A program made the translations under genes and the position numbers. From NCBI GenBank assembly GCA_000091205.1, contig AP006502.2: a stretch of 64,000 nt of DNA; one strand, 5' to 3'. How positions within the stretch are numbered: position 1 is the stretch's first letter; each line of letters begins with the position of its first letter. Below the pieces are notes generated by a model. It saw only the letters and a program-made list of their open reading frames with translations, was not told the DNA's origin and made no database searches. Of this stretch, positions 2,894 to 57,132 are shown in pieces. The stretch is from Cyanidioschyzon merolae (lineage: Eukaryota).

Positions 2894-3829
2894 ATGGTTC
2901 ACAGGGACCCCGCTGAAGAGCTATGGTGTGAGCTGTGGCAGCCTGGCGTAGACATCACGAGGAAAATGAACGCTATTTTCGGTTTAAAGGAGATCGGTAC
3001 GGAGCGTGCCGTGACGCTGCTCTGCGCAGCGTTACTGGACGCCCGGGAGCGGTCAGTTCTCGTGCGTCACGAAATTGCGTACGTACTCGGCCAGATCCAA
3101 AGTGCAGCTTCTATAAAAACGCTCACTGATAGGTTAATCGATACTGATGAGAACTCAATTGTCCGCCACGAGTGTGGGGAAGCGCTCGGTGCCGTTCGGG
3201 CTTTCGCGGTGCGACCTATCCTGCAGAAACTGTGTGGCGACGCGGTACCCGAAGTTCGCGAGACGTGCGTCCTGGCGCTTGAGCGGTTACGCTGGCTTGA
3301 AGAAAAGTCCACGAACGAGGAGCGCGTGCGAGAAACCTCGGCGAAAGCGTTCAAGCTCTTCGAAACGGTCGATCCAGCGCCGGCTTTTGTTGCACCCGAC
3401 GACCTAGAGGCATCCTGGTCCAACGCTGAGCTCGGTGAACTGCTCTTGAATGAAAACGAACCATTATTTCGAAGGTATCGGGCGCTGTTTACGCTACGTG
3501 ATCGCAATACGGACGATACGGCCGGGGTGATTGCGGCAGCGCTTCGACGGGACACATCGAGTGCCCTGTTCCGGCACGAGGTGGCGTATGTGCTGGGCCA
3601 GATGAGTCGTGCCTGCACGTTACCAGCGTTGGAGTCTGCTCTGGCTGACACACACGAACACGCCATGGTGCGACACGAAGCAGCGGAGGCCATTGGTGCG
3701 ATAGGTAACTCAAGTGCATGCGATATATTGCGGAGATTTCTGCGAGATGCGAATGTCATCGTTCGAGAGAGCTGTCAGGTGGCTCTAGATATAGCTGGAA
3801 TCTCTGACGACTGCCAGTTCATGGACTAG
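2894..3829 (+). CDS. DOHH: Deoxyhypusine hydroxylase (HEAT-repeat, His-Glu diiron motifs)
   Basis: 311 aa. Four HE motifs in the characteristic two-lobed layout (RHEIAYVLGQ, RHECGEALGA, RHEVAYVLGQ, RHEAAEAIGA), as in eukaryotic DOHH. Confidence 0.85.
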   Translation: MVHRDPAEELWCELWQPGVDITRKMNAIFGLKEIGTERAVTLLCAALLDARERSVLVRHEIAYVLGQIQSAASIKTLTDRLIDTDENSIVRHECGEALGAVRAFAVRPILQKLCGDAVPEVRETCVLALERLRWLEEKSTNEERVRETSAKAFKLFETVDPAPAFVAPDDLEASWSNAELGELLLNENEPLFRRYRALFTLRDRNTDDTAGVIAAALRRDTSSALFRHEVAYVLGQMSRACTLPALESALADTHEHAMVRHEAAEAIGAIGNSSACDILRRFLRDANVIVRESCQVALDIAGISDDCQFMD

Positions 3830-5378: not shown

Positions 5379-5421
5379 GATGTTCATGTTCATGTTCATG
5401 TTCATGTTCATGTTCATGTTC
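5379..5421. repeat. (ATGTTC)n hexanucleotide microsatellite, ~7 units (3 units in duplicate copy at ~18008-18026)
   Basis: Direct reading: atgttcatgttcatgttcatgttc... Unit number differs between the two duplication copies. Confidence 0.9.
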
Positions 5422-6885
5422 AAGTCCATGTCCTTGATCAAGTCCTTGAGCGTGTCCACGTCCATGTCCATTTCATGGAAACCGTTGGCCAGTCTGCGCT
5501 TCTTGCCTCCGTGCAGCCGGAGCATCGGCGAGTCCGGTGCGGCTCCATCTAGTGCCTCCATAGATTGTCTGCATGAGCCATTTGGACGCTCATGTGCTCC
5601 GTGAATGCGGCGTTCAGAGAATACCTCAGACCGCTGGATTCGGCGCTCAGAGCGTCAACATGGGTCACGACGCTGTCCTTGCACTCGCTGGTAGACCGCT
5701 GGGCGCCCGCCATGTCGGGCTCCCGTTCATGCCCTTCCCTGCACAAGCTGCGCAGTTGCATTTGCTCGCCCTGAGGATCTCCGGATACATCCCCTCGATG
5801 TAGAGATACTGCATCTGAGATGACGGTTTCCAGCTGCGGATCCGGGTCCGCCGCAATGTTCGTCTCGTCGTCTACCCTGACAGGTTGAAAAAGCTGCTCG
5901 TCGGCTGACGCTGGCCTCGGTTTCATGGAGTCTGTGTTTGTGTGTGTGTGTGTGCGTATGTGTGCAGACGGACAGTCCGTCGGTGCATCGTCCCTGTGCA
6001 TTTCGTCTTGTTTCCTTCGTGTGACAGAGAAACCTTGAACGAGCCTCTGCTCTGCTCTGCTCTGCTCTGCTTGAGGCTGCTCGAGCGATACGTCGCTGCT
6101 CGAAGAGATACCAGACCCTCTTCGCTATCCGCTTCACTGGGATGCCCGGTCATGGTCTGGTTGCTATGCTCTACGTCTGTTTTCCTCCTTGAGAAGCACA
6201 CGGACTGGATGGGCACTGTTACTAAGACTCGCCTTCTCTGTGTATGTATCGGCGCTCTCTCGGACACGTTTTCGTTACCTTCTTGAACGCGAGCGTGTCC
6301 ACGCACTGAAACGTGCCCCTGCGCTCCCTCCTGTGCAAGAGACGCGGCCCAACACGGTAGTTCAGGGCTGGTGGAGGTATCGCAAGCGTCGTCGAAAAAC
6401 TCGAGTGTTACGGACGTGACTGACGCACCACTAGATCCGTGAGCGTCAGAGCGGCTTTTGCCAACAGAAAAGACGCTTTCGACTGGAATGGACCAACGGA
6501 GAGTAGACTGGCAGGAAGCGCAGCTCTACGCAGTCTCAGCTGCATACTCGGTGACTGCTTCTTGTTGTGACGGGAACCGACGTTTTCTAGCAGCAGGACA
6601 GAAGAGCTTGGGAACGAGGTTCCGTGAGCACTTCTTAGAAGATTGAGGTTTTTGAAGGATCCGGGCTGTTCAGCGATCTCGGGGCGACCAGACGTGTTAC
6701 CCGCCGCTAGCTAGGACTGTTGTTGCCGTCGCGCTCGCTTGTCTTGGCTGAACGAACTGCGAATCGCCCCTCTTTAACTACCCGTGCGCAAGTCTACGCG
6801 TTCTCACGAACAAAGTCGCATCGAGTGAGACATGCAGCAGTCTGTCCCACGGTAAGCGATCCCTGAACAATACAAAAGCAAAGCT

Positions 6886-6906
6886 GAGCTGAGCTGAGCT
6901 GTCCGA
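6886..6906. repeat. (GAGCT)n microsatellite (expanded to ~11 units at 19488-19546 in copy B); (GT)n at 5934-5960 and (GCTCT)n at 6040-6076 nearby
   Basis: Direct reading of gagctgagctgagctgagctg. Copy B carries a longer array with one variant unit (gagctaagctg). Confidence 0.85.
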
Positions 6907-7339
6907 CACAGGATACGTTCCGGTGGCATCGCGCTTTCTCCCGCGTCCATTGGTGGCCCTTCACCGCTCTTCGTATCATGGGTACGGAAGTTTCAGAAAC
7001 TGTGGCTTTGCCAGTAGAGCTTCATAGCGAACGCTTGGAGACGAATGGAATGACGAGACGACGGTCGTGGAGATCGAGGTCCATAGGTTGCACGTCGGGT
7101 GCACCATGTCCAGACCGAGGACTAGGCAGCGAATGGCCCGTGCATCTGCCCACCGAAGAATGCCTGAATACTACACCTAAGATCCTCTGTCGCATGCTAC
7201 CAGAGACATCATAAAGTCGTCCCGCAACGCTCTTCCAACATGCTGGATACAGTCCATTAGTTGAGTGCCTGCGAGAAAAACAGAGGACGACGATGAAAAC
7301 GGCGTGCTGGTACAGGAGCTCCAGAATGCACTGCTCTGT

Positions 7340-10300
7340 TTATAGGCTCTCGATAGATGCCAAGTACTGGTGTGGGGAGAGCACGCTTGTACCGCCAATT
7401 ACCACGTCAATCTGCAGATGTGTAGCGAGTCCTCGTATCTGCTCCACTTCAAGAGCGGTGACTCCACCAAGTACCACGAACAGGAAGCGATCGTTTCGGT
7501 AACGTTCAGCGGCTCGCTGGAGACGATCCACCAACGCTGCATGCACTCCAGCGTCCTCGGGCAATGTTTCAGTCGCATCTTGCTGCTGCTGCTGCAGTGC
7601 CTCTGTGCCGTCTAAGGCTTCACAAACAGTCGCTTGTGATCGCACGTTCCTTTGTGCACTAGATGGGGGACTTGACGGCGACAGCGCCTCTGCCAGCATG
7701 CCTGCTTCTTCAGCGATACGCAACCTGCTGCGACGTGCACTGCGTTTGACGTCGACATCTGGCGTCGCCCGGTCGACTTGCTGAACGACTCGTGGAGTCG
7801 TTTGCGTGTCGGCTGCCGTTCGCTGTTCGTCGCTTTGATTACATGTTGTCCCTGGACTGTGCATCATATGCGCGTCCTCAGAATGAATACCTTTGCGGGT
7901 GTTCTGGCTGGGCATGGCGTCCAGTTGCATACCGACAGCAGCATCGTGCGTCATATCATGTCCCTGGGTTGCAGGCGTCGTCGTCGTCGTCATCGTCGTC
8001 GTCGCAGCGAGCGGAGCTGTCACGTGAGGCTCGGGCGCTGGCGACGGCGCTCGCGGCTCCACGAGCAACGTAGACAAGAAGAGTTCCGCAGCCGGTGACC
8101 CCAGCGGCTCCTTGTGTTCATGGTCGGACGCAACAGCGCTGTCGTCGTGCCCTTCAGCGACTTCATGTCGTTGTTGAAGATCGAATGCGCCCATATACTG
8201 GAGCAAAATTTGGCTCGCCATCGTCTCCGGTAACAGTAGCGATCCAAGTGACTCGTGTACCAGCACTCGAGCTCGCCGTCTCCGTCGCACGCGGGCGGAG
8301 CGCGTTGCCCACTTGGCGGCACGAAGGCGTTGAAGAAACGCATTCGCCGTTCGTATCAGCGAGTCTTGCGTCTGCAGGTCCAGTCCCGGAATTTTCTGGA
8401 CCAGTTCCCTGACAAGATGTGGGTCCCGGCATCCAAGGAACACCAGCAGTAAGCGCAGCTTGTCGGAGAGCGCATACGTGTCCGCTTCGAGAACCTTTTC
8501 CACGGTACGGCGCATCGTAGCGGAACTGATTCGTGACCCTTGATCCTGCTTGATACCCATGACGATGCACCTTTCCAACGCCGATAAATAGAGTAGATTT
8601 CGTTGTTGCTGTTCTTGGAGACAACGCTCCAGGCTCTTTGCATGCCAGCGCAAAGCGGAAAGCAACTCCAACTGCGCCGGGTCCGCTGCTTGGAGGCTCT
8701 CAAGCGCTCGCTTCAGCGAGGCAAGATCCAGGTCGATACATTCCGCATGAGTCACGCGGTTATCTGAGTCAGGCTCGCTGGATGCGAGGAGCGGCTGCGC
8801 GAGCGCCTGCAGTTTCGCCACAGCGTCCGATAGCGTGTACTGTCGCAGCGCTCGCCAGACCGCATCGTGCTCGGAAGGCCACTGCGGTCGGGCGTTTCCC
8901 GCTGCATCATTCAGTTCCAGAAGCATGCCGCGGTAGGTGTTCACGTGTAGCAGAGGCGTAACGGGGTCCACGGCACGATCCATGAGCAGGAGGTGCAGGG
9001 CACCGCGCCCTGCCACCAAACCTGGACAGAACAGCGGCAAGAGATGCACCGCTGCATACGTCTGAGCCGCCCTGGCAATGCAGGTCGCTTGTTCACTAGC
9101 CGCAGGAGAGGTATGAATCTGAATCCAGGGGGCTTCATTCGCAAAGGTGCCTGCACCCATGCCGTGCAGTAGGGTGCCGATCTGGTGACCGAGTTCCTCC
9201 ATGAGCTGGAACCGCATGGCGCAGGTCTCGGGAGCATCTGCACCGTACAAGAGACCAAATACGTCTTCCCGATTCTCGATACTTACCACTTGTTCCTCGA
9301 TCGGGAAAAAGTCCACATGAATGGGTAGTAAGACGGTGCTTCCGTCAACGTCCGCCCAGGAAATGGCGTGGCGGCGGGGCAGCGGTGCGCTCGGCGAACG
9401 CGTCAACAAGAGCCGCACCGGCACTGGAGCGCTTCGCTTAGCCTCATAGCGCGCCACACTGGTCATCCAGTCGCCCGTTGGAGCCAGAATATAGATTGTT
9501 GGGAGCTCTAGTTCCCGATTTCCGCAACGAGGAAGCTGCTCCAGGAGACATATCCGTGCTGAAGGGAAGCATTCGGCCAAGTTTGGTCCCAGGGCATATT
9601 TCAGGAGCACTGCAGTGCGGGCGTCGAGAACAAGAAGCCAATCTCTTTGCCCAAAGTGCTCCACTTGATCGTGGACAAGGGCGACCAGGAGACGCTGCAC
9701 TCGCTGGACGATGCTGAAAGGTTTTTGAGAATCGTCTATCGACCCGAAGCTCGGCAAACTGAGCATCAAAGGCGACAGGCTGTCCATGGACAGGATCCCC
9801 CCCGGAATACCCCAGCGCGGCTCATTCGCTGCCTCAGACCCGAGACTCGTCGGGCTGAGCGTGCCCTTCTCCGCTGCATCAGCTGCTTGAAATCCGTAGG
9901 CAGCCCCGAAATGCGCTTTTTTCTCGAAGCCAGCTCGTCGCTGCCGTCGTCTGCGCAGAAGGCACCATACCAACAATACACCGAATACCAGAGCGAGTAC
10001 GATCAGCACCGCCACAATGGCAGCTACGGCACCTGTACTGATGCCTTGAGCGGGACCCGCGGTCACAGCGTTGGCCTCGTTTGGATCCTGGACATCAACC
10101 GCGAGCACGTTGTCCGCGCCACAAGATACGGGTCCGAGCGCCGTCAAGTTACTCAAATGGCCCCTGCATACAAAGCGATTCAACGCTGTTTGCCAAGCAT
10201 CTAAAGCACTTGCGCTGATGACGCCCGCATAAGTGGCGATCACTGATCCAGCACGCAGATCGACCAGCACCAGCGGCGGGTCCGACAGAAGCGCTTCGCG

Positions 10301-11371: not shown

Positions 11372-13237
11372 CCCTGCGCGTAAAACTCAATGAAAACAAA
11401 GCGCGTGATACCTGGAAGCGCAAGGCGGATCGCAGAACAGAAATCTCTGTTCATTGTAGGAGAAATAGGCATTCGATCGATCCGAGTATGGACGCGTGGC
11501 CTGGGGAGCAAACAGCGCCGGCTGGTGGCGCCTCGAGGGCCGGTGGCGGCACGTGCCGCTTCCGCGCACAGGGCGGCGCTTTTGTTGTGGCCCGGACCTA
11601 GCGGGGAAGCCGACGGAGATGGTTCATATTTGTCTATTAATGAATAAGAATATGAAGCGGCAGCAGGGCAATCGAGGTCTCCGCGCTCTTGCGCGTACCC
11701 CGCTGGACAGGAAAATGCGTACGCGCGCGCGGCTCGCATCCGATGATCGACACCTGTGATCGATACACATGCGATACTGAACTGCTCGTGCTATCCCTGC
11801 GTTGTGACTTGTCGCAAATTGCAGCGTTAAACGGACAACCTAGAGATCAAAAGTGCATGCATAGGAGATTACGGGTGCATATATAGGTATACGATTTTTG
11901 ATCGATTTTGTTCGGAGTGGGTTCTTCGAAGCTTTTGCGCCTGGGATTCGTTACGTTCCCAGAAACAAGATGACTGGGGGCGGCGCCCACAAATAATGAT
12001 TGGGAAAATAACCAATGTCGCGATGCAGCGTATGCGTCCAAGTCTCCGCTATTCTTCTATCGTTACATGTATCATGTTCAAATCACGTATTCTTCGTGGT
12101 TTCGATCGCACTGTTCTGAAGCGAGTCGTGCACGCAGTAATGCACGTCGCCGGATTGGCCACGAAACCAGAGCTCAACGTCGACTCTCGAAGGCGTTTTT
12201 CACATCGAATCATTTGTCTCGTTCGAAACACAAATCCGCCTCTGTTTCGAGGCATCGACCAATCGGCATTCGCCTGGAGCATAATACCTGTCACGGGATA
12301 TGCTCGCAAGGGCCCCTGTCTCTTCTCTTTGCATTCAAAAAAGGGTACTGGACACGAGCTCCAGTTATCGCAACGATCACTTCCCGTGGACCATAAGCGG
12401 ATGGAAAACTCTCGATCTCTCCTCTAACCTGGATTCCGCTTCCGAAACGTGTTCCATCATGACCAAGATCGCGTTTCATAAATCCCGTCTCGAATGGAAC
12501 ACTGCGCGCTTGCGCTCGCGGAGGATACCCTATTTACTGCGTGAATCGCACAGAAAAAACATGTGATCATGCGATACGACGATGTGTGCGAAAATGCAGG
12601 ACGGTACCGAAAGAAGCCTTCCGTAGTGTCCAGGTACATGCGGCAATCGATGAAGCAAGCGTTCAAGCTGCACTAGCCGCCGATAAAAGAGAGGGCACTT
12701 GTTGCGATGGACATCTGGGACGCCTGACCGCTGCCAAGTGTCACTGCTGCGAGGGACGAACCGAGGTCGCGTTCGAAGAACGTGCGTAGATCACAACTTT
12801 TGCCGGTGCATGAATCGCGTGAACAACACCCAGAAGCAGCGAAATCGGCGACTTGGACGCTACGATCAATACCCCTTGACCGGCATTAACAGAGCTGAAC
12901 AGACAGGAGAGATCGACGTAATCTGAGCCTGAGACCATACGGAGGTAAGGCAGGCAGTCGGAGACGAATCCCTCAAAGACTTTTGTTCATGACTGTGGGA
13001 AGCATCCCAAACTTGAGAATGTACGCTCGAGTTAGACCAGTGGACCTGCACCTTTCGATTCTGATATCGCGAGATGCTCGGTCGAGCAAAGAAGCAGACG
13101 TCGACCGGGGGCTGGCGGGTACATCTATTCAGCCAATCCCAGACGCCTTCCAGCCTTTATTAGGCCGGCCGACTGCTAACGGTTTCAGTTTATCCGGGCA
13201 CACTTCGAACCTCAGAGGCAAACCCCACGAAGCTGGA

Positions 13238-13576
13238 TTACGTCAGGCCGTCGTGTCTCGTCTTCAGCACCACACAGCGTCTGATATTGATAGCAGCGTT
13301 GAAGCCCCGGGTCACGAACTCCATGCGTTTGTTGCCTCTGGTCGAACTCACAAGTGCAAGAATTGCTAGAACTCGTGCCCCATCAGAGCCACTACAGTCT
13401 CGACATTGTCCTGTCGGGCAAGCACCGTGTCCCGCACATCTCCGCTCTTCCTCGTCTTTTGCTTCTACATCACTTGCTCTTCTTCGCTCGATCGTCGGCG
13501 AGAAGAGGATTTTTCTGTTTCCTTTCCAGTACCCGGCGATCTCGGGCCCGCCAGGACCCCTGACTTGCACGTCCAT
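13238..13576 (-). pseudogene. Degenerate Fanzor/TnpB-like nuclease remnant (C-terminal zinc-finger and RuvC-III segment only)
   Basis: ORF ends ...CAGHGACPTGQCRDC..VLAILALVSSTRGNKRMEFVTRGFNAAINIRRCVVLKTRHD. Clearly homologous to the C-terminus of the intact Fanzor-like ORF at 43056-44669 ([38 protein letters not shown]). No RuvC-I or RuvC-II region precedes it; the upstream part is replaced by a minisatellite. Confidence 0.55.
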
Positions 13577-13782
13577 ATCCGCCCCTTGGGTTTCTTACTT
13601 GTCCAAACGAGCACATGTCGAAAACGTCCAGCATAAACCGCAAAAAAAAGCACTTGACGCAACGCACCTGGAGATGGAACGCAATTCAGATGAAAGTCCA
13701 GAACGCACGCTGCGGCACCGGATCGCCGCAAGATCGCAGGCGCGCAGCGTGCACAGACGGCGCCTTTGCCGCTGAGGGTAGC

Positions 13783-14010
13783 GTCCGTCACGAGAAGCGG
13801 CCTGTGCGCGTCTGTCACGAGAAGCGGCCTGTGCGCGTCTGTCACGAGAAGCGGCCTGTGCGCGTCTGTCACGAGAAGCGGCCTGTGCGCGTCTGTCACG
13901 AGAAGCGGCCTGTGCGCGTCTGTCACGAGAAGCGGCCTGTGCGCGTCTGTCACGAGAAGCGGCCTGTGCGCGTCTGTCACGAGAAGCGGCCTGTGCGCGT
14001 CTGTCACAGC
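13783..14010. repeat. 27-bp minisatellite (gtcacgagaagcggcctgtgcgcgtct), ~8 tandem copies
   Basis: Perfect period-27 repeats starting at 13787, 13814, ... 13976. They produce artefactual repetitive ORFs in three frames (13465-14025, 13615-14130, 13766-14116). Confidence 0.9.
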
Positions 14011-17349: not shown

Positions 17350-20110
17350 ACTCAGTAATATCGAATAATGCAACACCATTCTCGATTGGCAGTCGCCCAG
17401 GGATACCATTCCGACTACATAAATACGATGTTGCAGACTTGTTGTATTCCTGACCATACCATACTACTGAATTGCTCCAGGCGAGAATCAGATGCCGCCT
17501 CTCTAATGTCCTTGAATTCGTTTATCAAAGGTCGTCAGCGATTCAGGGCAATGCCCACGGCCTGTACGCAACGATCCGCTCCGGGGTCCGTTCGATGCAG
17601 AGCTCATGCGCGTTTCGCTAGCAGAGGCCATCTCCGAACGTTGTTCGACAGACGCTCATATCTCGATCCATAAAGGGCCGTCACACGCTTCGACAGGTAA
17701 ACGCACACAACTGCATGCCGCTCGCTCTCGTTGCTCGCTGCATCGGACGTTATCTCAGCGTACCGTGCAACATCTCGAGCGTCCGGCTCTGTTTCACGCT
17801 CTTCTCCTCTACCGGCATCAGCGCGCAACCGTGCTCTTGATTTCTGCATATTGTCCTGCATCCATCGATAAGCATCGGAAAGAATCGATTCCTTCGCTCG
17901 TTGCACGCTCTCGTAGACGCAGCAGGAATGCAGCCCGAGCGCGTTCCAGCACCTCGAGCGGCAGTGCGCTGCCACCGAACAGCACGACGCATCATGCACT
18001 ATCGGGTTCATGTTCATGTTCATGTTCAAGTCCATGTCCTTGATCAAGTCCTTGAGCGTGTCCACGTCCATGTCCATTTCATGGAAACCGTTGGCCAGTC
18101 TGCGCTTCTTGCCTCCGTGCAGCCGGAGCATCGGCGAGTCCGGTGCGGCTCCATCTAGTGCCTCCATAGATTGTCTGCATGAGCCATTTGGACGCTCATG
18201 TGCTCCGTGAATGCGGCGTTCAGAGAATACCTCAGACCGCTGGATTCAGCGCTCAGAGCGTCAACATGGGTCACGACGCTGTCCTTGCACTCGCTGGTAG
18301 ACCGCTGGGCGCCCGCCATGTCGGGCTCCCGTTCATGCCCTTCCCTGCACAAGCTGCGCAGTTGCATTTGCTCGCCCTGAGGATCTCCGGATACATCCCC
18401 TCGATGTAGAGATACTGCATCTGAGATGACGGTTTCCAGCTGCGGATCCGGGTCCGCCGCAATGTCCGTCTCATCGTCTACCCTGACAGGTTCAAAAAGC
18501 TGCTCGTCGGCTGACGCTGGCCTCGGTTTCATGGAGTCTGTATTTGTGTGTGTGTGCGTGTGCGTATGTGTGCAGACGGACAGTCCGTCGGTGCATCGTC
18601 CCTGTGCATTTCGTCTTGTTTCCTTCGTGTGACAGAGAAACCTTGAACGAGCCTCTGCTCTGCTCTGCTCTGCTCTGCTTGAGGCTGCTCGAGCGATACG
18701 TCGCTGCTCGAAGAGATACCAGACCCTCTTCGCTATCCGCTTCACTTGGATGCCCGGTCATGGTCTGGTTGCTATGCTCTACGTCTGTTTTCCTCCTTGA
18801 GAAGCACACGGACTGGATGGGCACTGTTACTAAGACTCGCCTTCTCTGTGTATGTATCGACGCTCTCTCGGACACGTTTTCGTTACCTTCTTGAACGCGA
18901 GCGTGTCCACGCACTGAAACGTGCCCCTGCGCTCCCTCCTGTGCAAGAGACGCGGCCCAACACGGTAGTTCAGGGCTGGTGGAGGTATCGCAAGCGTCGT
19001 CGAAAAACTCGAGTGTTACGGACGTGACTGACGCACCGCTAGATCCGTGAGCGTCAGAGCGGCTTTTGACAACAGAAAAGACGCTTTCGACTGGAATGGA
19101 CCAAGGGAGAGTAGACTGGCAGGAAGCGCAGCTCTACGCAGTCTCAGCTGCATACTCGGTGACTGCTTCTTGTTGTGACGGGAACCGACGTTTTCTAGCA
19201 GCAGGACAGAAGAGCTTGGGAACGAGGTTCCATGAGCACTTCTCAGAAGATTGAGGTTTTTGAAGGATCCGGGCTGTTCAGCGATCTCGGGGCGACCAGA
19301 CGTGTTACCCGCCGCTAGCTAGGACTGTTGTTGCCGTCGCGCTCGCTTGTCTTGGCTGAACGAACTGCGAATCGCCCCTCTTTAACTACCCGTGCGCAAG
19401 TCTACGCGTTCTCACGAACAAAGTCGCATCGAGTGAGACATGCAGCAGTCTGTCCCACGGTAAGCGATCCCTGCACAATACAAATGCAAAGCTGAGCTGA
19501 GCTGAGCTGAGCTGAGCTGAGCTGAGCTAAGCTGAGCTGAGCTGTCCGACACAGGATACGTTCCGGTGGCATCGCGCTTTCTCCCGTGTCCATTGGTGGC
19601 CCTTCACCGCTCTTCGTATCATGGGTACGGAAGTTTCAGAAACTGTGGCTTCGACAGTAAAGCTTCATAGCGAACGCTTGGAGACGAATGGAACGACGAG
19701 ACGACGGTCGTGGAGATCGAGGTCCATAGGTTGCACGTCGGGTGCACCATGTCCAGACCGAGGACTAGGCAGCGAATGGCCCGTGCATCTGCCCACCGAA
19801 GAATGCCTGAATACTACACCTAAGATCCTCTGTCGCATGCTACCAGAGACATCACAAAGTCGTCCCGCAACGCTCTTCCAACATGCTGGATACAGTCCAT
19901 TAGTTGAGTGCCTGCGAGAAAAACAGAGGACGACGATGAAAACGGCGTGCTGGTACAGGAGCTCCAGAATGCACTGCTCTGTTTATAGGCTCTCGATAGA
20001 TGCCAAGTACTGGTGTGGGGCGAGCACGCTTGTACCGCCAATTACCACGTCAATCTGCAGATGTGTAGCGAGTCCTCGTATCAGCTCCACTTCAAGAGCG
20101 GTGACTCCAC
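17350..20110. repeat. Segmental duplication copy B (direct repeat of ~4725-7468)
   Basis: Same ORF translations as copy A, with microsatellite length differences: (ATGTTC) 3 vs 7 units, (GAGCT) ~11 vs 4 units, (GT)n variants. Ends inside a truncated copy of the Sec1 3' end. Confidence 0.85.
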
Positions 20111-20111
20111 C
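19983..20111 (-). pseudogene. Truncated duplicate of the Sec1/Munc18 gene 3' end (last ~42 codons) carried by duplication copy B
   Basis: ORF 19983-20231 ends WGGVTALEVELIRGLATHLQIDVVIGGTSVLAPHQYLASIESL. This is near-identical to the C-terminus of the 7340-11371 Sec1 ORF (...GGVTALEVEQIRGLATHLQIDVVIGGTSVLSPHQYLASIESL). The upstream part of that ORF is unrelated. Confidence 0.65.
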
Positions 20112-32820: not shown

Positions 32821-33494
32821 GTATTGAGCGCAATCAGTGCATGTTCAGGCAAGATTTGCAGCAAAGCAGCACCACTGGGGAACGAGCCGCTGTCCAACGC
32901 TTTGTGAATGCTTGATCAAACGCTTAAATGGCTCAACGAAATGTCGGTGCATGAAGCTGTAGGTGCAGTGTGCAGACCAGCGAGACTCGAAGGGGATTGT
33001 GGTGGCCTCAGTGCAGTTCGCACTCGCATGCGGGGACCCAGCGAGCCTCTATGGCCTTGGAGCAACTGGTACCAACTCTTTACCATCGAGAATCGTGTCG
33101 TTTTTGTTTTGGTGTTGATTTGGGAACCGGGTACCCGACATATTATCCATGTCTTATGCCTGGAGTAAACAAATTCAGAGCCCGCGTCTACGTAACCAGC
33201 CTAGTGCTACCCGAAAATTCTGACAAGCGTCTTTATCGTGTATCAAGAGTTTCCGCACGAGGTTTCCAATGCGCTTTCGGACGGAGAACCGAAGCGATAG
33301 GCGTTCTGGTAGCTGTCGCGGGGGCATCATCGACATATGCTGAAAGAATAGAAACTCTGCTCTGACTAGCAACTCGATAACAGTTTCGTTTGACCTTGAT
33401 TGTAAGCGCAGAAATGGGGAAAAGTTTCAGTATCTCGGAAAGTTTACCTTTTAGGCGGAAGGTCCCGCGAGCCGGACGAGTCTTCGGGGCTAGC

Positions 33495-33930
33495 TAGTGC
33501 TTCATGCTTCCTCCAGTGGCGGGTTCTTTAAAGAAACCTGAGCTACTCGTCCGTAACGCAATTCAATCTGGGACTAGGAGCGTGTATGCTGCGTCTGGGC
33601 GTCGCCCTGGTCGCAGTGGACGCCCAGTATATCGCACCGTGCCGCCGCAGGCAGTGCGTCTCTCTGCGCAGCTTCCAGGCTCCTAGAATGATTAAGTACT
33701 CCGACTCCGTGTCCGATGAACCACGCCTCGAGCCGACGCCCTCAGTGGTATGCCAAAGCCGTTCTGTCTCCGTGCAGCACCTGCTTCGGCGGTATATAAG
33801 CGCTACGGCGGGTGCTCAAAACAGCTAGTCGGCGCACTATAGAACATACGAAACGACCAGTATATCAGAGAGCATGTATGGGTGATAGAACTTGAAGGTA
33901 GATGCTTCATGATGGACGCTTTCCCGAAAG
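33495..33930. repeat. Dispersed ~435-bp repeat family, copy 1 (partner 45250-45685)
   Basis: Shared blocks: gctactcgtccg.a..gca.ttca.tctgggac; cccagtatatcgc; ccgcaggca; gaatgat..gtactccgac.ccgt.tc; gccgttctgtct.cgtgc; acgaaacgac.a.tatatc.gaga; gatgcttca. Roughly 75-80% identity by eye. The short ORFs 33586-33828 and 45340-45540 are homologous translations of this repeat. Confidence 0.6.
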
Positions 33931-34272
33931 CCATTATCCTTTCCGAATCCTCGGATCCATGGTCAGTCTAAACATTCTCTCATCTGAAAAGAATTCGACA
34001 TACGCTGTGTAAATGTTCAAAGCGAGCACCATATGAACTGGAACGCTACCAATGGCTAGAACGTGTGTCGAAGGAGACCTATTCATCCCGAGGAAGGTCT
34101 CGTGGGGTCTTCTCGGGCGCTCCGGCGCACGCGCCAAGCAAATTTCGAACCTCCGCTTGTGCTTATACAAGCATGGGAGACAAGCACTTCATGAACACCA
34201 CCATGACGAAGCTTTACCGCTACTAAACGAAAGTAGACTGGTTAAACTTGACGAAAGCGTTCAGGTTCCTTT

Positions 34273-41006: not shown

Positions 41007-42896
41007 TCAAATGGCTGAACGCGAACGGTCCACAGACTCTTGATCCGGAGCTTGTCGCTGCTCCATCCACTGAATATACGCTGTCTGTTGCTTGCTGTGC
41101 TCCACAATGTCCGGGAAGCGGAGCCCAACCTGCAGCTCATCTTGAGGGCACCGAGCCCGCTCAACAAGAACAACAACTGTATCAGGCACGTCCAGCATCG
41201 CTTGCCAGCCATCCGTTGCGTTCACGGAGAAGAGGCCGCCCCAGACACTTCGTTGCTGATGCATGACCACGAATTCCAGCTGCAAACGAATATCCTCCGG
41301 CTCGCGTTCCAGCCCTGGTCGATGCTCGAGTTTCACAAGCAGACCTCGAGACTCGGATCGCGCCAGTGGCCCCGCATGCGCAGCGACTCCATCGCTGGGG
41401 GTCGGGCGTTGCGCCCGAGGCGGCGTCTTCCTGTCAGGTATCCGCGGCGAACGCGTTGCGTCCCAGGAGCAGGCATCCATCCATTGAACTTGCCACCGCA
41501 AACCGCATACCTTCAACGTGCCGGGAACACGGGCCCATGCAAATGGTGGTAGCACCGCACATTTCAGCGGTATAGGTGCTTGGTCCTCGGGAAGCGCCAC
41601 CAACATCGTAGTACCAGCGGATTCGCTCCACGCACTGCATACCGCGTCGGATGCATCTATGACGGAGAGCGCGCTCAGCGCTTCCCAGCGCTCTTTCCAT
41701 TCCTGGTGTGCACGTAAGAGCGACTCAGCGCTGCTGGGGAGGGCGTGTGCGCGCTCCGCATAATGCCCTGCAATGTCCTGACGATACGCCAGCAGGCGAC
41801 GTTCCATGTCGCGGAGTAACCGCCGCAGATGCATACGCATGTCCACGAGACGCGTACGTGCTGCCTGCTGGGACTGGATCCGCTGCTGGACCTGGGTATC
41901 GATCTGCTCGAGCACGGAATCCATGAAACGTTGAATACGCTGGGAAAGCGCTTCACGCTGCCGCAGAAAGAATCGAGATGTCTGCTCGTACTCGAGCAGT
42001 TGGCATTCGAAACGCTGAAGGCGCTCGCGAAGCGGTTGCAAACCCTGCTCTAGCTCAGATGCCAAACTTTGGAGTCGCTCGTGGGCGCGTTCCAGCGGAT
42101 GGTAGCGATGCTCGCACTCGGGCAGCGGAGCACAGCACTCCGCACATATGAAGCGATTGCAGCGTTGGCAGTAATACCGCACAGCTTCATGAGCGTGGAC
42201 CGAGCAGCACCATAATGTTGCCTTCAGCGCTGACAGGGATCGCGGTGCACCTGGATTCTTTTCCGCTGGCTGCTCTGGCAGCGCCAGTTTCGGGCCTCGG
42301 CGGATGTTCTGCAGCAGCTCGCGGAGACAACGCACCAGCACCAGTTCGTGACGAGCAACGGGCTGTCGACAGTGTGGACACGGTTGTGTGCTCGCGATAC
42401 GACGGTGTCCCTGCGACGACGCCGTGCTGGGCTCTCGCCACCACTTCGTCGCACACCGTTCGCAAAACAAGACCCCGCACGAAGGACAGAGAAGCGGCTC
42501 GCGAGGGAGCTCAGCGCAAATAAGGCAGTTCAAATGGTGTTCAAGTTGTGTCGTCCAGGGGTTTGCGTTCGTCGAGGTCACAGGCGGCTGCCCCGTCGCG
42601 TTCAGGTCGGTGGGGTGTACCTCCTCGAGGGCCAGGCACTGCTCGCTCGGCTGTGAAAGAACGGTACCAGACGACCTGTCCCCTCTTTCTTCCACTCTAC
42701 ATAAACGTGCTAGCTGTGCAACAAGTTGCATCCAATCAAGCGACTCGGGTGTGCGGTCTGGGGCGAGCTCCTCGCTGTCGGCGCTCAGCGGTGGGCTGCC
42801 CGCTCTCGGCGACACCAGCCCACTCAGTGCTGTGTCGCTGAGCCGGTCGTCACCGACAGAGCATTCCAACGACGACAGGTCCGTATCACTGTCCAT
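41007..42896 (-). CDS. RING finger / B-box / coiled-coil (TRIM-like) putative E3 ubiquitin ligase
   Basis: 629 aa. RING-like CLICAELPREPLLCPSCGVLFCERC...CPHCRQPV; B-box-like WCCSVHAHEAVRYYCQRCNRFICAECC; then a heptad-rich coiled-coil segment. Confidence 0.6.
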   Translation of the reverse strand: MDSDTDLSSLECSVGDDRLSDTALSGLVSPRAGSPPLSADSEELAPDRTPESLDWMQLVAQLARLCRVEERGDRSSGTVLSQPSEQCLALEEVHPTDLNATGQPPVTSTNANPWTTQLEHHLNCLICAELPREPLLCPSCGVLFCERCATKWWREPSTASSQGHRRIASTQPCPHCRQPVARHELVLVRCLRELLQNIRRGPKLALPEQPAEKNPGAPRSLSALKATLWCCSVHAHEAVRYYCQRCNRFICAECCAPLPECEHRYHPLERAHERLQSLASELEQGLQPLRERLQRFECQLLEYEQTSRFFLRQREALSQRIQRFMDSVLEQIDTQVQQRIQSQQAARTRLVDMRMHLRRLLRDMERRLLAYRQDIAGHYAERAHALPSSAESLLRAHQEWKERWEALSALSVIDASDAVCSAWSESAGTTMLVALPEDQAPIPLKCAVLPPFAWARVPGTLKVCGLRWQVQWMDACSWDATRSPRIPDRKTPPRAQRPTPSDGVAAHAGPLARSESRGLLVKLEHRPGLEREPEDIRLQLEFVVMHQQRSVWGGLFSVNATDGWQAMLDVPDTVVVLVERARCPQDELQVGLRFPDIVEHSKQQTAYIQWMEQRQAPDQESVDRSRSAI

Positions 42897-43055
42897 CAGG
42901 TAGAGTGGGAGCCTGACGGGCTGTTTGCCGCACCAAGCGACGTTCTAAACTCGAACGACGTCGGGCGTGTACAGTAGTGGCGAACCGTACGCCCTGGACA
43001 AGAAGTCTTCAACCGAGGTGCAGACGCCTCCCCGTCTTTTTGGACCGGCTACCTA

Positions 43056-44669
43056 CTACTGATTCCAATTTTTCTCATATAATTCAACTTTTAGAGGTTG
43101 TCTACTAAAGTTCTCTCTTGTCCATTCTGGAGGTCTTTTCTCCAGCACCGCACATTTCCCTATATTGACAGCGGCGTTAACGTCACGGTTCACAAACTCC
43201 ATCCGTTTCTTGCCATCACTGGTTGTACTTCCTAATGCAAGTAGTCCACGAACTTTCGACATCCTTTCCATATGCTCTTCCGTCAGCGGTCCATACCTTT
43301 TTATATCCTCAGGGCTCCTCTGGCACTTTTCTATCCCGACCCCTTGAAGTGTGCACGCCACTTCATGGTGTGTATACGATGTGCGAACCTCACCTACAAG
43401 TATTGTAACGAAACGCCTTGCGCACTCCGTGTACGTTCTCGTCGTTGGAGCTGGTGTAGTTCCTTTTTGGGTCATCCAGTGTCCTGCTCCGTATGTTGCT
43501 ACGAGCCTCTGACCTTCATTCCCCTTCAAGGCGCTCAACTCATTGAAAAAATTCGCGAACGCCCCCTGCTTCCCACAATACAAATTCATTCGCAAACGAG
43601 CCCACCGGGGCTTGGCATACTCCTCCCACAGCGCATCCCAATGAGCGACGCGAACTTCCATAAACTCCCGAAAAGCTTTAAAATCCGCTCCTCGGCTTGT
43701 CACCTCGCTCAAAGCTTCCAGGTGCTCGTTCATTCCTGAATTCCACGTCTCTATTTTCTTCCTTGCATTCATGATTCCCGATTCTCGATAGTATCTCGCT
43801 CTCGAGAACCTCAAAAGACGCATGTCTTTCTGACGTAAGTTACCATCAGTGCCATCTTTCGCACGCTTCGGTGCTGCGATGGTTATGATATTTGTGCTTC
43901 CTGGGTCCGCACCAACGGCAAATTCGTTATCCTGCACTTTCTGCGTCTCAGGACCCGCCTCTTTTTTTTCTTCATGCTTTACCGCGTCAACGACGAAGTC
44001 GTTATCCTCCACCTCTTGCGTCGCAGGATCTGCCTCCTTCTCATCTTCATCCTTCGTCACGTCAACGACGAGGTCGTTATCCTGTACTTTCTGCATCGCA
44101 GGTTCCGCATCCTTCCCATCTTCATCCTTCGTCACGTCAACGACGAGGTCGTTATCCTGTACTTTCTGCATCGCAGGTTCCGCCTCCTTCTCATCTTCAT
44201 GGTTCGCCGAGGGCGGAACTGGACGATCTGTCTTCAACTGCCGATAGTGTACACACAACGCTACTCCATCGGTTTCGATCATCCTAGTGAACAACTTTTG
44301 TTTGCTCACTTTGAGACGTTTGAAATCGAAGATATTCTTCCAGTACGCCTCCTGGTTTTCACCGGAGAACTCCTTCCTGCTAACATTGAACTCCAGACTG
44401 ATCTCCTTAAAGATGCCGTAAAGGACGCCGGAGGCGATACTCAAAAAATGTGACTTGATGTTGTACATTGGAACCACGTTGAAGCGCTTACCCATCAGGA
44501 ACGCCTTCCGTCTCTCCCACTCTTTATTTGTCTCCTCACGCAGCTTCATCTCTGCCTTGCGTTCGAGCTCTCGGTCCAGAAACACGAAATAGCGCAGGAC
44601 GAGGCAATAGTATCTTTCCTTATGTTTTTTCAACTCTGATATCTTGTCTGTTGGATTCGCCAACCCCAA
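43056..44669 (-). CDS. Fanzor/TnpB-like RNA-guided RuvC-fold endonuclease (eukaryotic OMEGA-type nuclease)
   Basis: 537 aa. RuvC-I-like [16 protein letters not shown] (Asp); Fanzor-typical segment [15 protein letters not shown]...W after RuvC-I; RuvC-II/zinc-finger region [15 protein letters not shown]...C; Ruv[25 protein letters not shown] (the DxNAAxNI hallmark of TnpB/Cas12/Fanzor). The N-terminal part carries ~3.7 in-frame 25-aa tandem repeats. Confidence 0.7.
43919..44198. repeat. In-frame 75-bp tandem repeat (~3.7 units) inside the Fanzor-like CDS
   Basis: Plus-strand units gtcaacgacgaggtcgttatcctgtactttctgcatcgcaggttccgc.tcctt..catcttcatccttcgtcac. They encode [28 protein letters not shown]-type repeats just upstream of the RuvC-I motif. 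Confidence 0.85.
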
Positions 44670-45249
44670 GACTGCACGATGCTCTCGTATAACCGCACGG
44701 ATGACAGAAGCTTCATTCGTGCTCCTGCGTGACGCCTTCTCATAGACGAATTCGATCTCCTGCTCATGCTGGCGATCGTTCGTGATGCCATTGATAATCG
44801 TCTATATCCTCTTGGGAGAGATGCCCGGGTAGAGTGCAAACACGGCGCGTATCATGAGACGTTCGAGGTTCATTGTCAAATCGTTCATCAGGTTTCTGAG
44901 GTACTTTTCGCCCCGTAGTTGTAAATATTCCCGTCATCCTTGTATCGAGTACCGTTGGGGCGGGATTCTGCGTAATTTTAGTGCAGGGCATGCACTCGCT
45001 CATTTCTCCTCGACGTTTCCCTCGTACCAAGCATCAGGTGACGAATATAGGTCTTGTCGAAGAACTCGTCCGGAACCTCGACCGTTTCCATGTGCGTCAC
45101 GTCGCGATACATCTCCCTTACCAATTGCATCAGTCCTGACGACGCCTTTACAATACTCTTGGAGTACGAATCGACACGGTTTCTGATCGCATCTCGCAAC
45201 TTTTCCTTGTACGGATCCTTGATATGTGCAAGAAGGTTCCCCAGGCTTG

Positions 45250-45685
45250 TGGTTCATGCTCCCCCATTGTCTAGTGTTATCGTGAGATCTAAGCTACTCG
45301 TCCGCAGTGCAGTTCATTCTGGGACCGTGAACGGGATCATTGGGCGTAACGCTGGTCCCAGTTGACTCCCAGTATATCGCTTCACTGCCGCAGGCAATGA
45401 GTCTATCTTTACAGTTTGCAGGCTCCCAGAATAATGATGTACTCCGACCCCGTATCGAGTGGGTCACCCCTCGAGCCGGCGCCATCTGTGGTACGGCAAC
45501 GCCGTTCTGTCTGCGTGCGGCGACCGCATCGGCGCTTTAGGCGCCATTGCGCACTACCAGGGCAAGCAATCGGCACACGATTGAACGTACGAAACGACGA
45601 TTATATCCGAGAAGGAGTACGGATAATGTTACTTGGAAGTAGGGTATGGATCGATGGATGCTTCACCGCGCACTGAAACAAAGAA
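45250..45685. repeat. Dispersed ~435-bp repeat family, copy 2 (partner 33495-33930)
   Basis: See copy 1. Lies ~600 bp 5' of the Fanzor-like ORF start on the same side. Confidence 0.6.
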
Positions 45686-47749
45686 CAACGAAAAGAAAAG
45701 GCGTACAATCGGAGAAGGTTGGCCTCTGAAAGTGTGTTGTCAACTAAAAAAACTTCCATGCGCCAAGCAAGGCGATGCGGTAAGTTCGTTCGGACACAGC
45801 TACGCATTGATCAAGGTGGCAAGAGAGAATGGTGCTGTAGCCGGTTCGTGTGCGGAAGTTGCGTTCGGTCTGGTCCCTGCGGATTTGAGGACAGTGTCCC
45901 TTCATTACCGCTCGTAGGGACGGTGTGGAAACTTCACTTGATGTGGCTTGATTTATCGAATTTCTTAGAGAACATCCGGTAGGGAGTGGATTGATTACAA
46001 GTCAGTCTTGTAGAGAGCGTTGGCTACGTTCTGTTTTGGGTATGTGTATGTGATGTACAGGATAGGGAATACTGGGCATGTGCTTCATTCACTTGCTGAC
46101 CGTAAAATGACTAATTCGTAAACTTCATACCTGTTTTGCATGCGAGCACTAAGATCTTCACATCATTCCGCAACGTGTCTGCGATCGACCGAAAGCATGC
46201 TTTCAAGTACCTGCATGAGAAACAAAATAAAACGGATTGCGCCGGCACACGAGGTCCAGAGTTCACTGGTACGCGTATCGAGAGAACACAACGCAGGCGC
46301 TGTACCAAGGAGATTAAAATGGAACATTGACCTGCGTTCTCTGTCCTTACGTTTTGGTGATTCGCAAGTTTCTTATCCGATCTACAGCCTCGATATTCCA
46401 AGTGCAGCAATAGGGGATTCCACATTCACATCTCGTTCTAGGATTTTCGGCGGTGGTTTCGAAGTGGCTGCATCGACGCAGCCCCGCTCGAATGCATTCG
46501 ATCACCGGCATCACGGGGATTTGTGGCGTCCTCTCAAATAGATTCCTACAGAACCGATACGATTGTCTATTTCATGGGTGCGAGCCTCGGTTCTTTCCCT
46601 GACTTTACGTACAGGACGCACAAACCATGCATTCTTCAAGATTTCGATCTCACTCTTTCAAGGCAACACCTAAGCAGAACGACATGCTTCCCGAGGGTGA
46701 TGAGAAAAAGAATATGGCTTCGTCCTTTGAGTACTTGTTCACAAGCTCCTGCCAAAAGTTCATGGAACTTCTTGCGTCAAATAATCGATTCCATTCGAAC
46801 GACAAAGCCCATTTTCATCGTTGCAAAAGAGGAACCAGTATTCAACAGCAGCATGCTAATTTACGAGAGGTATACGCCAAGAGGCCCTTGTCTTCAAGCT
46901 TTGCACTAGAGAAAAGTCCTGGACTCGCTGCGCACGCATTATAGCAATCGCTACCACTAGAGGCCGAGTCACCAATTCTGGAAAAGGGAACGTAAGCGGA
47001 TTGCAATGCCTCGACTTGATCTCCGACCTGGATTTTCCGGACGACACTCGTTTCATCATTGACAAAATCGCGTTCCATGAAGCCTTAATCGACAGGAACA
47101 GCTCACGCTTGCTTGCGCAACGGACAGGGTAATTGTCAATGGCCTCACCGAGGAAGAGCCCATGGATGTAGGGTACGACACCTTTGTCTCGCGGACCTAT
47201 GACGGCACTGAGGGTACCGTCTGCACCCGTCATGCGCACGCATCGAGCGATGAAGCCAGCGTTCGCGCGCTCCAAGACGGCTCCCTGAGGCGGACGGCTG
47301 CTGGTCTTATGCGAACCCCTGAGAACAATCAAGTGCCACCGCTGCGAAGGGCGCACAGAAGCTGTATTCAAAGACGCTTGAAGTGTCAAGCGAAGCCTAG
47401 ATCGCAATGACCATGAGTGCATGAAACGCGTCGACAACGCCGGGAATCGGCGTGATCAGAAGTTCAACGCTGCCGTGTACTTCCTTGGGCCTGTGACAAC
47501 GCCACTGGAGGATACAGAGACATCGGCATATTCAGAGCCGGAGCTTAGAGCGCGAGGAAACGGAAGCAGTCACAGAAACAGCGTGCCGCGCTTCGTGTCG
47601 GTGAGAAACGGAAGAAACCAAAACTGTAGAGAGCACATCCGAACTCGCAAACCAGACCTTTTCTATTCATGTCTGACACGAGTGTAACTGCCTGTTTGTG
47701 CTGACCCTGCACGTGTCGCGCTCGAGTCGCTCACGAAAAAGGGAATTTG

Positions 47750-54959: not shown

Positions 54960-57132
54960 CCGCAGAAGACATCCCTGGCAACGCTGGATGCTTCAGGGAA
55001 AATCGTTGCATCGCTTCCACAAGCTCTGGACATGTTGCAGGACGTATGGTTGCGGCCTCATGACGTGAGGGTGCTGCATGTCTCGATCCGGCTTTATCGG
55101 TCATCGGATGGAAAGAACCGTCATGTCGACGCGTTTCTCATGTAGATCCTGGCGCGTCATGCGAAAATCAGCCAGCGCAGTCGATCTGTGACTCCCGCGT
55201 GTGCCTGCAACCGAGCCAAACATGGAAGTGAGCAGTCGTGGGGATCTCGCTTGCAGCCCGCGAGTCTGAGGAGCACAAGCATCGCGGCAACTGGGGGCGT
55301 TTCTCTGCTTCCAACACCGTTCTATGGCGTAAGATGGCGTCTATATTCAGCAAGATCGAATCATGGAACACTATAATCGTCTTCCGTCTGCGAAGGGATA
55401 TCGCTGCCGGGGCATCTGTAGGGTGCTCCCAACTTGCTCGATTGCCGAATTCGAACGACATCCGTGTCAGGAACCGGGCGAAAATCCATTGTCGTTTCTA
55501 ATCAGGCAAGTGGGTTTTCACTACAGGTCTGTAACGCTTCAGCAGCATGCCCACATGAAGCGTTCAACGATTACGTCGAAAGTTCACTCTCCAGAAAAGC
55601 AGCAGGACGCTCCAGAAGCACGAGTGTTCACCGGGTGCTGATCGAGGCGCTCAAGTCTCGGTGCAGAGCGTGCGCACGCGCTGACGTATGCTCCACTGAA
55701 AGCGATCCCTGTAAAAAGCGTCTTGTCTCGGTCCGCGGCCATTTTCCATCCGGAGAGAAGAGACAGGAGCCTCCCGCAACATATCCCGTGAGATGTACCG
55801 AGCAGCTGTCGAATGCCGTTTCGCGACTGGCCAGAAAGCGAGAAGGATATGTCACGCAAAGGGAATCGATTAGTTTCCATGAGAAGCTCAGTGGACGTTC
55901 GTCATGAGCTTGTGAAAATGTATTCAGTGGACGACGTCGAGCATTTTCTTTCGTCTATTCAGCGTCGCGAATTGCTGCGCCTCACGAGTTACCTTGAACC
56001 AGAACGATCGAAAACTTGAAAAATGCGCAAACTGTGTGCGCTACACGTAACAAATGGAGCAAGTTGGAGGCTGGTGCGTATGAACTGCATGATAAGATCG
56101 GTTATTTTACAAACCCTCGTTTGAGGGCGTTGCAAATCATCTTGATTCCCCTGACGTCACGAATTCCACCAGCGAAACGTCGATTGATGCAATCCGAATA
56201 GACGACAGAGAATCCCAAAGCTGCGTGTGAGTTCTCAACACCTTACGAGTGCACATCGAACGTCTAGACTCGAAGTCTAAATAAAGCATACAAAAATGTC
56301 GACAGGCACAAACAGAGCGAGCAGCCCAGTGATTGATTTTAATCTGACACGGGTATAGCGCTGCTGCATCTCCGATGACGAGTCGCCTTGTCGCCGCTCC
56401 CGAGACTCCGCGTCCATGATCGTCAAAAGGCGATGTGAAAGCCCTGCAGCTTTGTGGATTGATTCGGAGCGATCCACGCAAGTTGCGTACACGACATGAA
56501 TCTAGGTGCATATGTAGCATCAGCGTTCTCATCGCTAGCTCCACTGCATTTCATATGTGCACCGATTCGGTGGTCGATGCGAAGCGACTGGCTGTACCTC
56601 GAGATGGACTCAGAATGCGGTATTAAGAGCGCGACGTTCGTTCCGCCCGCGAGCGCCTCGCGGTTTTCTGCAGCGAGTCCAATAAGCGGCTTTGGCTTCG
56701 GGTTAGCAGGCACTCGAAAATTGCGTGAATCCAAGACGGGAACGTGGTTCAGCGCGAATGCAATGCGAGAATTATCGATATGGAGGCGTGATGATGCTAC
56801 GATGATGCGCGAACTTTTCTGGAATGCAACATCGCACTGCGACCACACAGGTGCCAATGAATGCAACGCGCGAATTATCGATAGGGAGGCATCATAATGC
56901 GGCCACGATGCGCGAACTTTTCTTGAATGCAACATAGCAATGCGTCCGCACGAATTCCACGCCGCACAACTTCCGCCCTTGACGTCGCTGTGCACCAAAA
57001 TCGGCAAAATCAATAGCACAGAGAGATCGTCAGTGGTCGTGCCCGCCATGCGAGCAATGCAGTGATGAAACTTCTCAAGAAGAGACGGGATACACTCGCT
57101 TCCAATCTCGTCGGAGAAGTGGAAAACGCTTC

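Follow-up and report, generated by a model that had tools for sequence, protein, structure and literature searches.

The 64,000-nucleotide stretch of Cyanidioschyzon merolae DNA that was analysed here (the window) carries on its minus strand an open frame of 537 codons (43056-44669), which a preliminary description had taken for an apparently intact, possibly active gene of a Fanzor/TnpB-like RuvC nuclease. Set against the family consensus and orthologous copies, it proved to be a truncated pseudogene. The best explanation, to which we assign a probability of about 0.93, is that positions 42937-45745 (minus strand) represent a dead copy of CMe-1A, a family of DNA transposons of about 3.2 kb without terminal inverted repeats (TIRs) that carries a Fanzor1 gene; the 537-codon frame is most likely the surviving tail of this broken copy. 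The ORF list confirmed the frame itself, its freedom from internal stops and the peptides quoted from it, and the assignment to Fanzor1 stands. The locus type, which had been regarded as mostly uncharacterised, is not new: a 2013 publication on C. merolae already gave the family, its host and copy number, and consensus sequences for DNA and protein, and Fanzor activity was established in 2023.

CMe-1A and the lesions of the locus

CMe-1A was described in C. merolae as a Fanzor1 family without TIRs that numbers about 150 copies, some of them intact, at about 80% identity each to a consensus of about 3 kb (Bao & Jurka 2013, Mob DNA 4:12, PMC3627910). The short element TE-N2_CMe is equal to the 5′ 635 bp of CMe-1A (Bao & Jurka 2013), and the published consensus of 3169 bp encodes a 734-aa single-exon Fanzor1 named CMe-1 (supplements of PMC3627910). 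The consensus DNA and protein from these supplements were used as the reference, with the consensus CDS at nt 906-3110 (734 codons). When the published consensus was compared with the window by blastn, consensus 1080-3137 matched 45235-42967 at 87.5% nucleotide identity (87.4-87.7%), and consensus 65-494 matched 45663-45241 at 74%. By blastn and global alignment, the whole Fanzor1-carrying copy was placed at 42937-45745 on the minus strand, with ends approximate to about 10 nt, and its 5′ non-coding part at 45241-45745 (minus strand), equivalent to consensus 1-494 and including the segment common with TE-N2_CMe. No inverted repeat joining the two ends of the element was found in a terminal inverted-repeat search of 42937-45745.

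Both features that mark a member of CMe-1A were thus found, namely similarity to the consensus along the length of the locus and a TE-N2_CMe-like 5′ segment without TIRs. The locus and CMe-1A share the species, about 2.1 kb at 87.5% identity, the gene order and the motifs; relative to the published consensus, however, an internal deletion has cost the locus 585 bp, and there are two nonsense codons, two frameshifts and three additional 75-bp units. Two neighbouring ORFs were identical to the C. merolae 10D proteins BAM83313 and BAM83315 (1.62-Mb chromosome). The relative P0113 was not found to be encoded within the 64-kb window.

The lesions were enumerated by global alignment and with a codon table against the 734-codon consensus CDS, and the codon-by-codon comparison revealed five disabling ones. 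The first is a deletion of consensus nt 495-1079, with its junction at 45235-45241 (minus strand; blastn and global alignment): what remained of the 5′ UTR is gone, together with the start codon (the ATG at consensus nt 906) and codons 1-58, among them those for the K/R-rich N-terminus. A remnant of consensus codons 59-167, which correspond to N-terminal WED/REC, was located by tblastn at 44909-45235 (minus strand) in a frame other than that of the main ORF; CMe-1 consensus aa 59-167 matched it at 83% identity in frame -1. Within this remnant, E144 is replaced by a nonsense codon (GAA to TAA, 44978-44980, minus strand; codon table and translation). At codon 168, next to the remnant, the reading frame is shifted by the loss of 1 bp (consensus nt 1408; about 44907, placed at 44906-44908, minus strand, by global alignment). 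W203 is likewise changed from TGG to TAG at 44802-44804 (minus strand; translation and codon table), which sets the upstream limit of the 537-codon ORF. The fifth lesion, at 43056-43073 (minus strand; blastn, alignment and codon table), is a 1-bp deletion in an A-run (about 43068; consensus nt 3035, codon 710) that is followed by a stop at 43056-43058 and costs about 25 basic C-terminal residues. The global alignment also showed 213 extra in-frame bases in a tandem repeat relative to the consensus.

The 537-codon ORF is thus the stretch left between the W203 nonsense codon and the codon-710 frameshift, and it is not an intact gene. It comprises approximately consensus codons 220-709, 71 extra repeat codons and four out-of-frame codons. 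Its listed start was a TTG, as allowed by the bacterial code, and an ATG appears in frame only at codon 41 (44549); counted from there, 497 codons are still open in strain 10D. On the family profile the ORF begins at about position 205-213 of 606, and the N-terminal WED strand and most of REC are absent; the complete Fanzor1 domain set (N-terminal WED strand and REC, WED, RuvC, NUC) is not present in the ORF, nor does the locus, with its five lesions, hold an intact full-length ORF with a start codon. No annotated protein for the ORF was found in any source when exact protein look-ups were made with three start choices.

The view that the gene is apparently intact could not be upheld in the face of these lesions and the TTG start, and the orthologs described below are further broken. 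An intron-containing 5′ extension to about 45200 had also been envisaged. Homology does run upstream, to 45235, but it consists of exon-like sequence with nonsense codons and a frameshift. Introns were rejected as an explanation of the upstream breaks, since the stops sit at aligned consensus codons. The case illustrates that freedom from stops over a long ORF, even with the catalytic triad preserved, does not show a gene to be intact.

Orthologous copies and selection

A metagenome scan yielded 80 family copies, in which L003, L004, L005 and L008 were identified as orthologs; a further ortholog, L002, was found separately and does not cover the N-terminal lesion region. The five orthologs showed 98-99% nucleotide identity and 94-96% amino-acid identity to the window copy, with the same host-gene neighbour. 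In L003, L004, L005 and L008 the deletion junction, the TAA, the TAG and the codon-168 frameshift were identical to those in the window, which indicates that the N-terminal lesions are real and old. Assembly errors are an unlikely source of them, since the same lesions occur in four independent metagenome assemblies. The 3′ frameshift at codon 710 was present in L002 and L003 and absent in L004 and L005. In addition, all five wild orthologs carried an extra 1-bp deletion at 44448, where the window keeps the consensus frame; the deletion breaks the 537-codon ORF, and the frame is therefore not conserved. An ATG-initiated ORF of at least 599 aa was kept in only 3 of 82 related loci, L001 (722 aa), L080 (654 aa) and L006 (599 aa), and intact members of the family look rare.

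Outside the repeat, the five orthologs pooled gave about 24 non-synonymous versus 16 synonymous variants, small numbers drawn from variants that were patchy in distribution. This is somewhat fewer non-synonymous variants than strict neutrality predicts, a deviation short of significance, with patchy conversion or assembly chimerism as a confounder. A dense patch of variants was observed at 43059-43181 in L004 and L005, and such patchiness points to conversion by paralogous copies or to a chimeric assembly. Divergence among the orthologs reached 8.3% in the hypervariable repeat versus 0.2-0.4% in the host gene. Neither the pooled variants nor dN/dS between the window copy and L002 gave a clear signal of constraint.

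When the locus was compared with the consensus, the RuvC part had a dN/dS of 0.18 and the remainder one of 0.42, so that most of the divergence predates inactivation and arose in the active lineage. The probability that no stop would appear in 506 codons was estimated by simulation to be 0.09-0.32 if 15-30% of the substitutions were neutral; the 506-codon open stretch was therefore rejected as evidence of selection.

Fanzor1 motifs, zinc ribbon and acidic repeat

As a single sequence, the ORF gave no significant match in Pfam, NCBIfam or PDB (phmmer). These blanks were rejected as evidence against homology, since the family profile and the fold search were positive, and the blank Pfam OrfB result reflects the divergence of Fanzor1 and not missing homology. 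A homologous-protein search found 119 relatives, many of them tagged PF26935 (DUF8286), and the distant relatives P0112 and P0116 reached the gathering score of PF07282 (Cas12f1-like TNB, formerly OrfB_Zn_ribbon). The comparison with OrfB profiles that had been proposed as a check thus gave a match for these distant relatives and none for the sequence alone. A 19-sequence family profile (A1) matched the structures of Parasitella PpFz1 (9CF0, E 5.6e-21) and Spizellomyces SpuFz1 (8GKH, E 8.3e-14). In these profile alignments DPG was paired with DPG/DPN, DEFRTS with DEFRTS/DEYKTS, and NRD with NRD.

The AF2 model of the ORF had a mean pLDDT of 61, with 70-89 in the RuvC half and less than 35 at residues 147-241, which cover the repeat. 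When the model was compared with the PDB by Foldseek, the closest folds were SpuFz (9CEZ, E 3.9e-9), PpFz (9CF1, 1.9e-7) and GtFz (9CER, 7e-6), followed by Cas12o and Cas12i. Profile and fold thus agree with the earlier proposal that this eukaryotic chromosome carries a RuvC homolog of the Fanzor/TnpB family.

In the alignment, the three putative catalytic acidic residues fell at the invariant or near-invariant DPG, DE[FY]xTS and NRD columns. The RuvC-I Asp, D255 in the motif GADPGSTN (43905-43907, minus strand), occupies a near-invariant column aligned with DPN/DPG of SpuFz1 and PpFz1. The alternative RuvC-II Glu, E427 in VGEVRTS (consensus VDEFRTS; 43389-43391, minus strand), lies in an invariant column aligned with DEYKTS/DEFRTS, and the RuvC-III Asp, D496 (43182-43184, minus strand), in an invariant column aligned with NRD of SpuFz1 and PpFz1. 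The canonical upstream RuvC-II position is a Gly (ATYGAG) in the ORF. Judged from these alignments, D255/E427/D496 would constitute the Fanzor-type rearranged triad, retained in the locus. A rearranged RuvC-II Glu has been described in Fanzors (Jiang et al. 2023, PMC10530073), and the metal ligands of SpuFz1 are D383/N385, E541 and D606 (Saito et al. 2023). In SpuFz1, H21, T22 and K25 of WED and R96, Q129 and N133 of REC contact the heteroduplex and the TAM; without N-terminal WED/REC, the ORF thus lacks the parts that contact the TAM and the first heteroduplex base pairs in SpuFz1.

The Fanzor motif given by Bao & Jurka, D-X-[TS][TS]-X-X-[C4]-X-RD, includes a zinc ribbon between RuvC-II and RuvC-III (PMC3627910). 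In the family alignment, no Cys was found in any of the four zinc-ligand columns of the ORF, and the published consensus and close relatives likewise have none; where P0112 and P0116 show CxxC...CxxxxC, the ORF has T, E, L/A and R/M. The "C..C zinc-finger neighbourhood" that had been read around E427 is accordingly not a zinc finger, and neither the C4 zinc ribbon expected of Fanzor1 nor PF07282 was detected in the ORF. The C4 zinc ribbon was lost at the level of the clade, not just in the 43056-44669 copy.

Tandem Repeats Finder located the in-frame acidic repeat at 43913-44200 (minus strand), with about 3.8 units of 75 bp (25 aa) and 84% matches. With 33 D+E versus 11 K+R in 93 residues, it is located in the linker that joins the WED beta-hairpin to RuvC strand 1, where it is predicted to be disordered. 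The repeat had been noted before as an unusual feature of this copy; its presence is confirmed, but it is not peculiar to it. Unit counts were taken from the spacer between conserved anchors in 76 family copies, and one unit was found in 21 copies, two in 24, three in 8, four in 12, five in 7, six in 2 and seven in 2. The published consensus has one unit and the near-intact L001 four. The repeat is a family-wide minisatellite of 1-7 units, every expansion of which is automatically in frame since the unit is 75 bp. In the family alignment it was absent outside the Cyanidioschyzon clade.

The 3′ end, rival explanations and known systems

The conserved 3′ terminal region was mapped to 42937-43055 (minus strand) by alignments of 41-69 copies and per-copy folding. 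Its last approximately 120 nt are well conserved across copies and form the best-conserved non-coding part of the family. In most copies a stem-loop, here at 42937-42962, lies exactly at the element boundary (...GCGT); it occurs in two versions, ACGTTTTTC-TTTT-GAAAGACGT and GCGTCGTTCGA-CTT-TCGAACGGCGT. Per-copy folding of the terminal segment gave a median MFE of -9 kcal/mol, with z below -1.5 in 22 of 41 copies, and the stem of the window copy was weakened (-8.3 kcal/mol versus -15 to -18 in the best copies). RNAalifold returned no consensus structure and no covariation support for the 41 aligned 3′ ends, and no Rfam family matched the 64-kb window at gathering thresholds. Fanzor omega-RNAs derive from the 3′ or right end of their element (PMC10530073), and the region fits a candidate omega-RNA scaffold or a terminal recognition hairpin. 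The 5′ flank of element copies was found to be T-rich and semi-conserved.

The parent gene encodes a 734-aa Fanzor1. By homology to SpuFz1, PpFz1 and GtFz1, this would be an omega-RNA-guided RuvC DNA endonuclease with a rearranged catalytic Glu, whose guide RNA would be expected from the 3′ end of the element, which is conserved and rich in hairpins. In the window copy, the gene was inactivated when the internal deletion took out the start codon and the first 58 codons, and by the two nonsense mutations and the pair of 1-bp frameshifts; the 537-codon ORF is the longest stretch left open by chance. Still present in it are the C-terminal part of REC/WED, the acidic linker with its expanded repeat, the RuvC triad and a NUC/TNB region that is zinc-less. 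Since N-terminal WED/REC and a proper start are missing, it is most likely that no functional nuclease comes from the locus and that it evolves as a pseudogene. Certain observations nevertheless count against a dead copy: the whole D/E/D set is still in place, the model gives the RuvC half a fair confidence (pLDDT 70-89), 497 codons remain open from an ATG in 10D, and the ortholog variants show the slight, non-significant shortage of non-synonymous changes noted above.

The alternative closest to the earlier proposal, an intact or near-intact Fanzor gene for an active RNA-guided nuclease with introns perhaps joining the upstream homology to the ORF, seems to us barely credible. It would account for the 537-codon open frame, for the retention of D255, E427 and D496, and for the homology reaching 45235, but it has to contend with the deleted start codon and codons 1-58, with frameshifts at codon 168 and at the 3′ end, and with a further frameshift inside the ORF in all five wild orthologs. 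The TAA and TAG that replace E144 and W203 lie within codon-for-codon aligned sequence and are thus not intronic, and the consensus CMe-1 gene is a single exon. C. merolae has very few introns; Matsuzaki et al. 2004 reportedly counted 26 intron-containing genes. Scarcely more plausible is the expression in 10D of a truncated RuvC-only protein of about 497 aa, starting at the ATG at 44549 and serving as a regulator, a dominant-negative of intact Fanzors or a domesticated nuclease. The same frame that stands open in 10D with its triad retained is broken at 44448 in all five wild orthologs, it has no dedicated promoter or start context, and its product would probably be deprived of the N-terminal WED/REC for TAM recognition and heteroduplex contacts. 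The ortholog ratio of non-synonymous to synonymous variants, slightly under the neutral expectation, points toward such a protein, but not significantly, and the variants lie in patches.

It was also considered that the protein is dead while the 3′ end yields an omega-RNA, loaded in trans by the Fanzor1 of an intact paralog and aimed at sequence flanking the locus. The conservation of the 3′ region, the boundary stem-loop of most copies and the 3′ origin of known Fanzor omega-RNAs are in keeping with this, but the weakened terminal stem of the window copy, the lack of a covariation-supported consensus structure and the apparent rarity of intact family members make it very unlikely. A wider proposal, which likewise takes the locus as dead, is doubtful and to be held only tentatively: the family may be a distinctive, still partly active zinc-less Fanzor1 lineage of a thermo-acidophilic alga, with an acidic linker, a boundary stem-loop and a T-rich candidate TAM, in which rare intact copies supply the protein and decayed copies might supply omega-RNAs in trans. 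The zinc-less NUC, the variable acidic linker, and the boundary hairpin and flank motifs can serve as guides for testing an intact CMe-1 nuclease of this thermo-acidophile. For the locus itself, the reading as a dead CMe-1A copy is retained.

Among known systems, the characterised Fanzor1 nucleases SpuFz1, PpFz1 and GtFz1 (PDB 8GKH, 9CEU-9CF3, 9CER) show significant profile and fold similarity to the CMe clade and share with it the DPG/DPN, DE[FY]xTS and NRD motifs and the rearranged RuvC-II Glu. The CMe clade differs from them in its identity of only about 11-18%, in lacking the four zinc-ribbon Cys of NUC/TNB, in its expandable acidic disordered linker before RuvC-I and in an element without inverted repeats; the window copy in addition lacks N-terminal WED/REC. 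With bacterial TnpB (ISDra2, IS200/IS605) the ORF family has in common the RuvC fold, the D...E...D order and membership in the superfamily of RNA-guided nucleases. Unlike ISDra2 TnpB, the ORF has Gly in place of the canonical RuvC-II Glu, an alternative Glu and no TnpA partner, and the CMe-1 protein is much larger with a eukaryotic N-terminus. In Spizellomyces punctatus, 42 Fz loci, 19 of them full-length, were reported together with 134 ORF-less ghost elements (PMC10432273); as in CMe-1A, mostly partial or ORF-less relics thus stand beside few intact copies. TE-N2_CMe differs from such ghost elements in that it represents the 5′ end of the long element and not both ends.

Termini, hairpin and neighboring gene of the dead element

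The approximately 10 nt directly beyond the published consensus ends of CMe-1A, the Fanzor1-carrying transposon of C. merolae, were found to be semi-conserved when family copies were compared (window 45746-45752 and 42927-42936, on either side of the decayed "dead element"; 5′ ends of related loci from the metagenome scan, L010, L019, L031, L055, L063, L065 etc.). The 5′ flank was T-rich (..GATTTTTTT(C)/CGATGACAAAAC; the slash marks the junction) and the 3′ flank was G/T-rich (..GCGT/TTGNTGNTGG). Either the real termini are located about 10 nt beyond the published ones, or the flanks reflect a target-site preference resembling a target-adjacent motif (TAM-like). Target-site duplications could not be determined in the 2013 paper (Bao and Jurka, 2013; PMC3627910).

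An alignment of 41 non-redundant 3′ ends (window 42926-43175 and 40 loci from L001 to L076) revealed two sequence-distinct versions of the terminal stem-loop, which differed in loop size. This is compensatory change at the subfamily level that maintains a hairpin precisely at the boundary of the element.

The host gene BAM83315, described as "similar to glycogenin-interacting protein", is on the same strand as the dead element, and its ATG follows the element's 3′ end after only ~40 bp (42896-42937); therefore, the promoter or 5′ UTR of this gene must overlap the transposon fossil.

Divergence among orthologous copies

Variants were patchily distributed when the orthologous copies L004 and L005 were compared with that of the window: 10 substitutions together with indels fell within one 120-bp patch (43059-43181), and these indels returned the 3′ end to the reading frame of the consensus. 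Between strains, divergence of the whole element was several-fold above that of the adjacent host gene. Such patchiness, combined with the high divergence, suggests ectopic gene conversion among the ~150 copies or a chimeric metagenome assembly.

Other repeats and Fanzor1-related sequences in the window

The short element TE-N2_CMe, equal to CMe-1A consensus nt 2-636, was also detected on its own, with no Fanzor gene attached (33343-33984, minus strand; this solo copy is 81.5% identical). An isolated C-terminal fragment of the transposon's protein, CMe-1, was located at 13223-13378 (minus strand; consensus aa 647-699, 64% identity), and a near-perfect tandem duplication of ~108 bp (13781-14007, 99% identity) was noted ~400 bp away. 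Another short tandem duplication (56756-56951, ~100-bp unit, 84% identity) had no relation to the Fanzor finding.

A second dispersed repeat, of 2.79 kb, was present in two copies, 96.9% identical to each other (4720-7468 and 17350-20111). Both contained minus-strand Fanzor1-like remnants (5027-5887 and 17657-18592) with ~24-28% amino acid identity to CMe-1, which were spread over multiple frames, far more degraded and interspersed with microsatellites. TDGLSVCTH, the DPD RuvC-I motif and RD were all retained; the alternative Glu of the rearranged Fanzor-type RuvC-II was gone (LIDGCRT). Since a single Fanzor family is given for C. merolae by Bao and Jurka (PMC3627910), this repeat may represent an older family, so far unreported.
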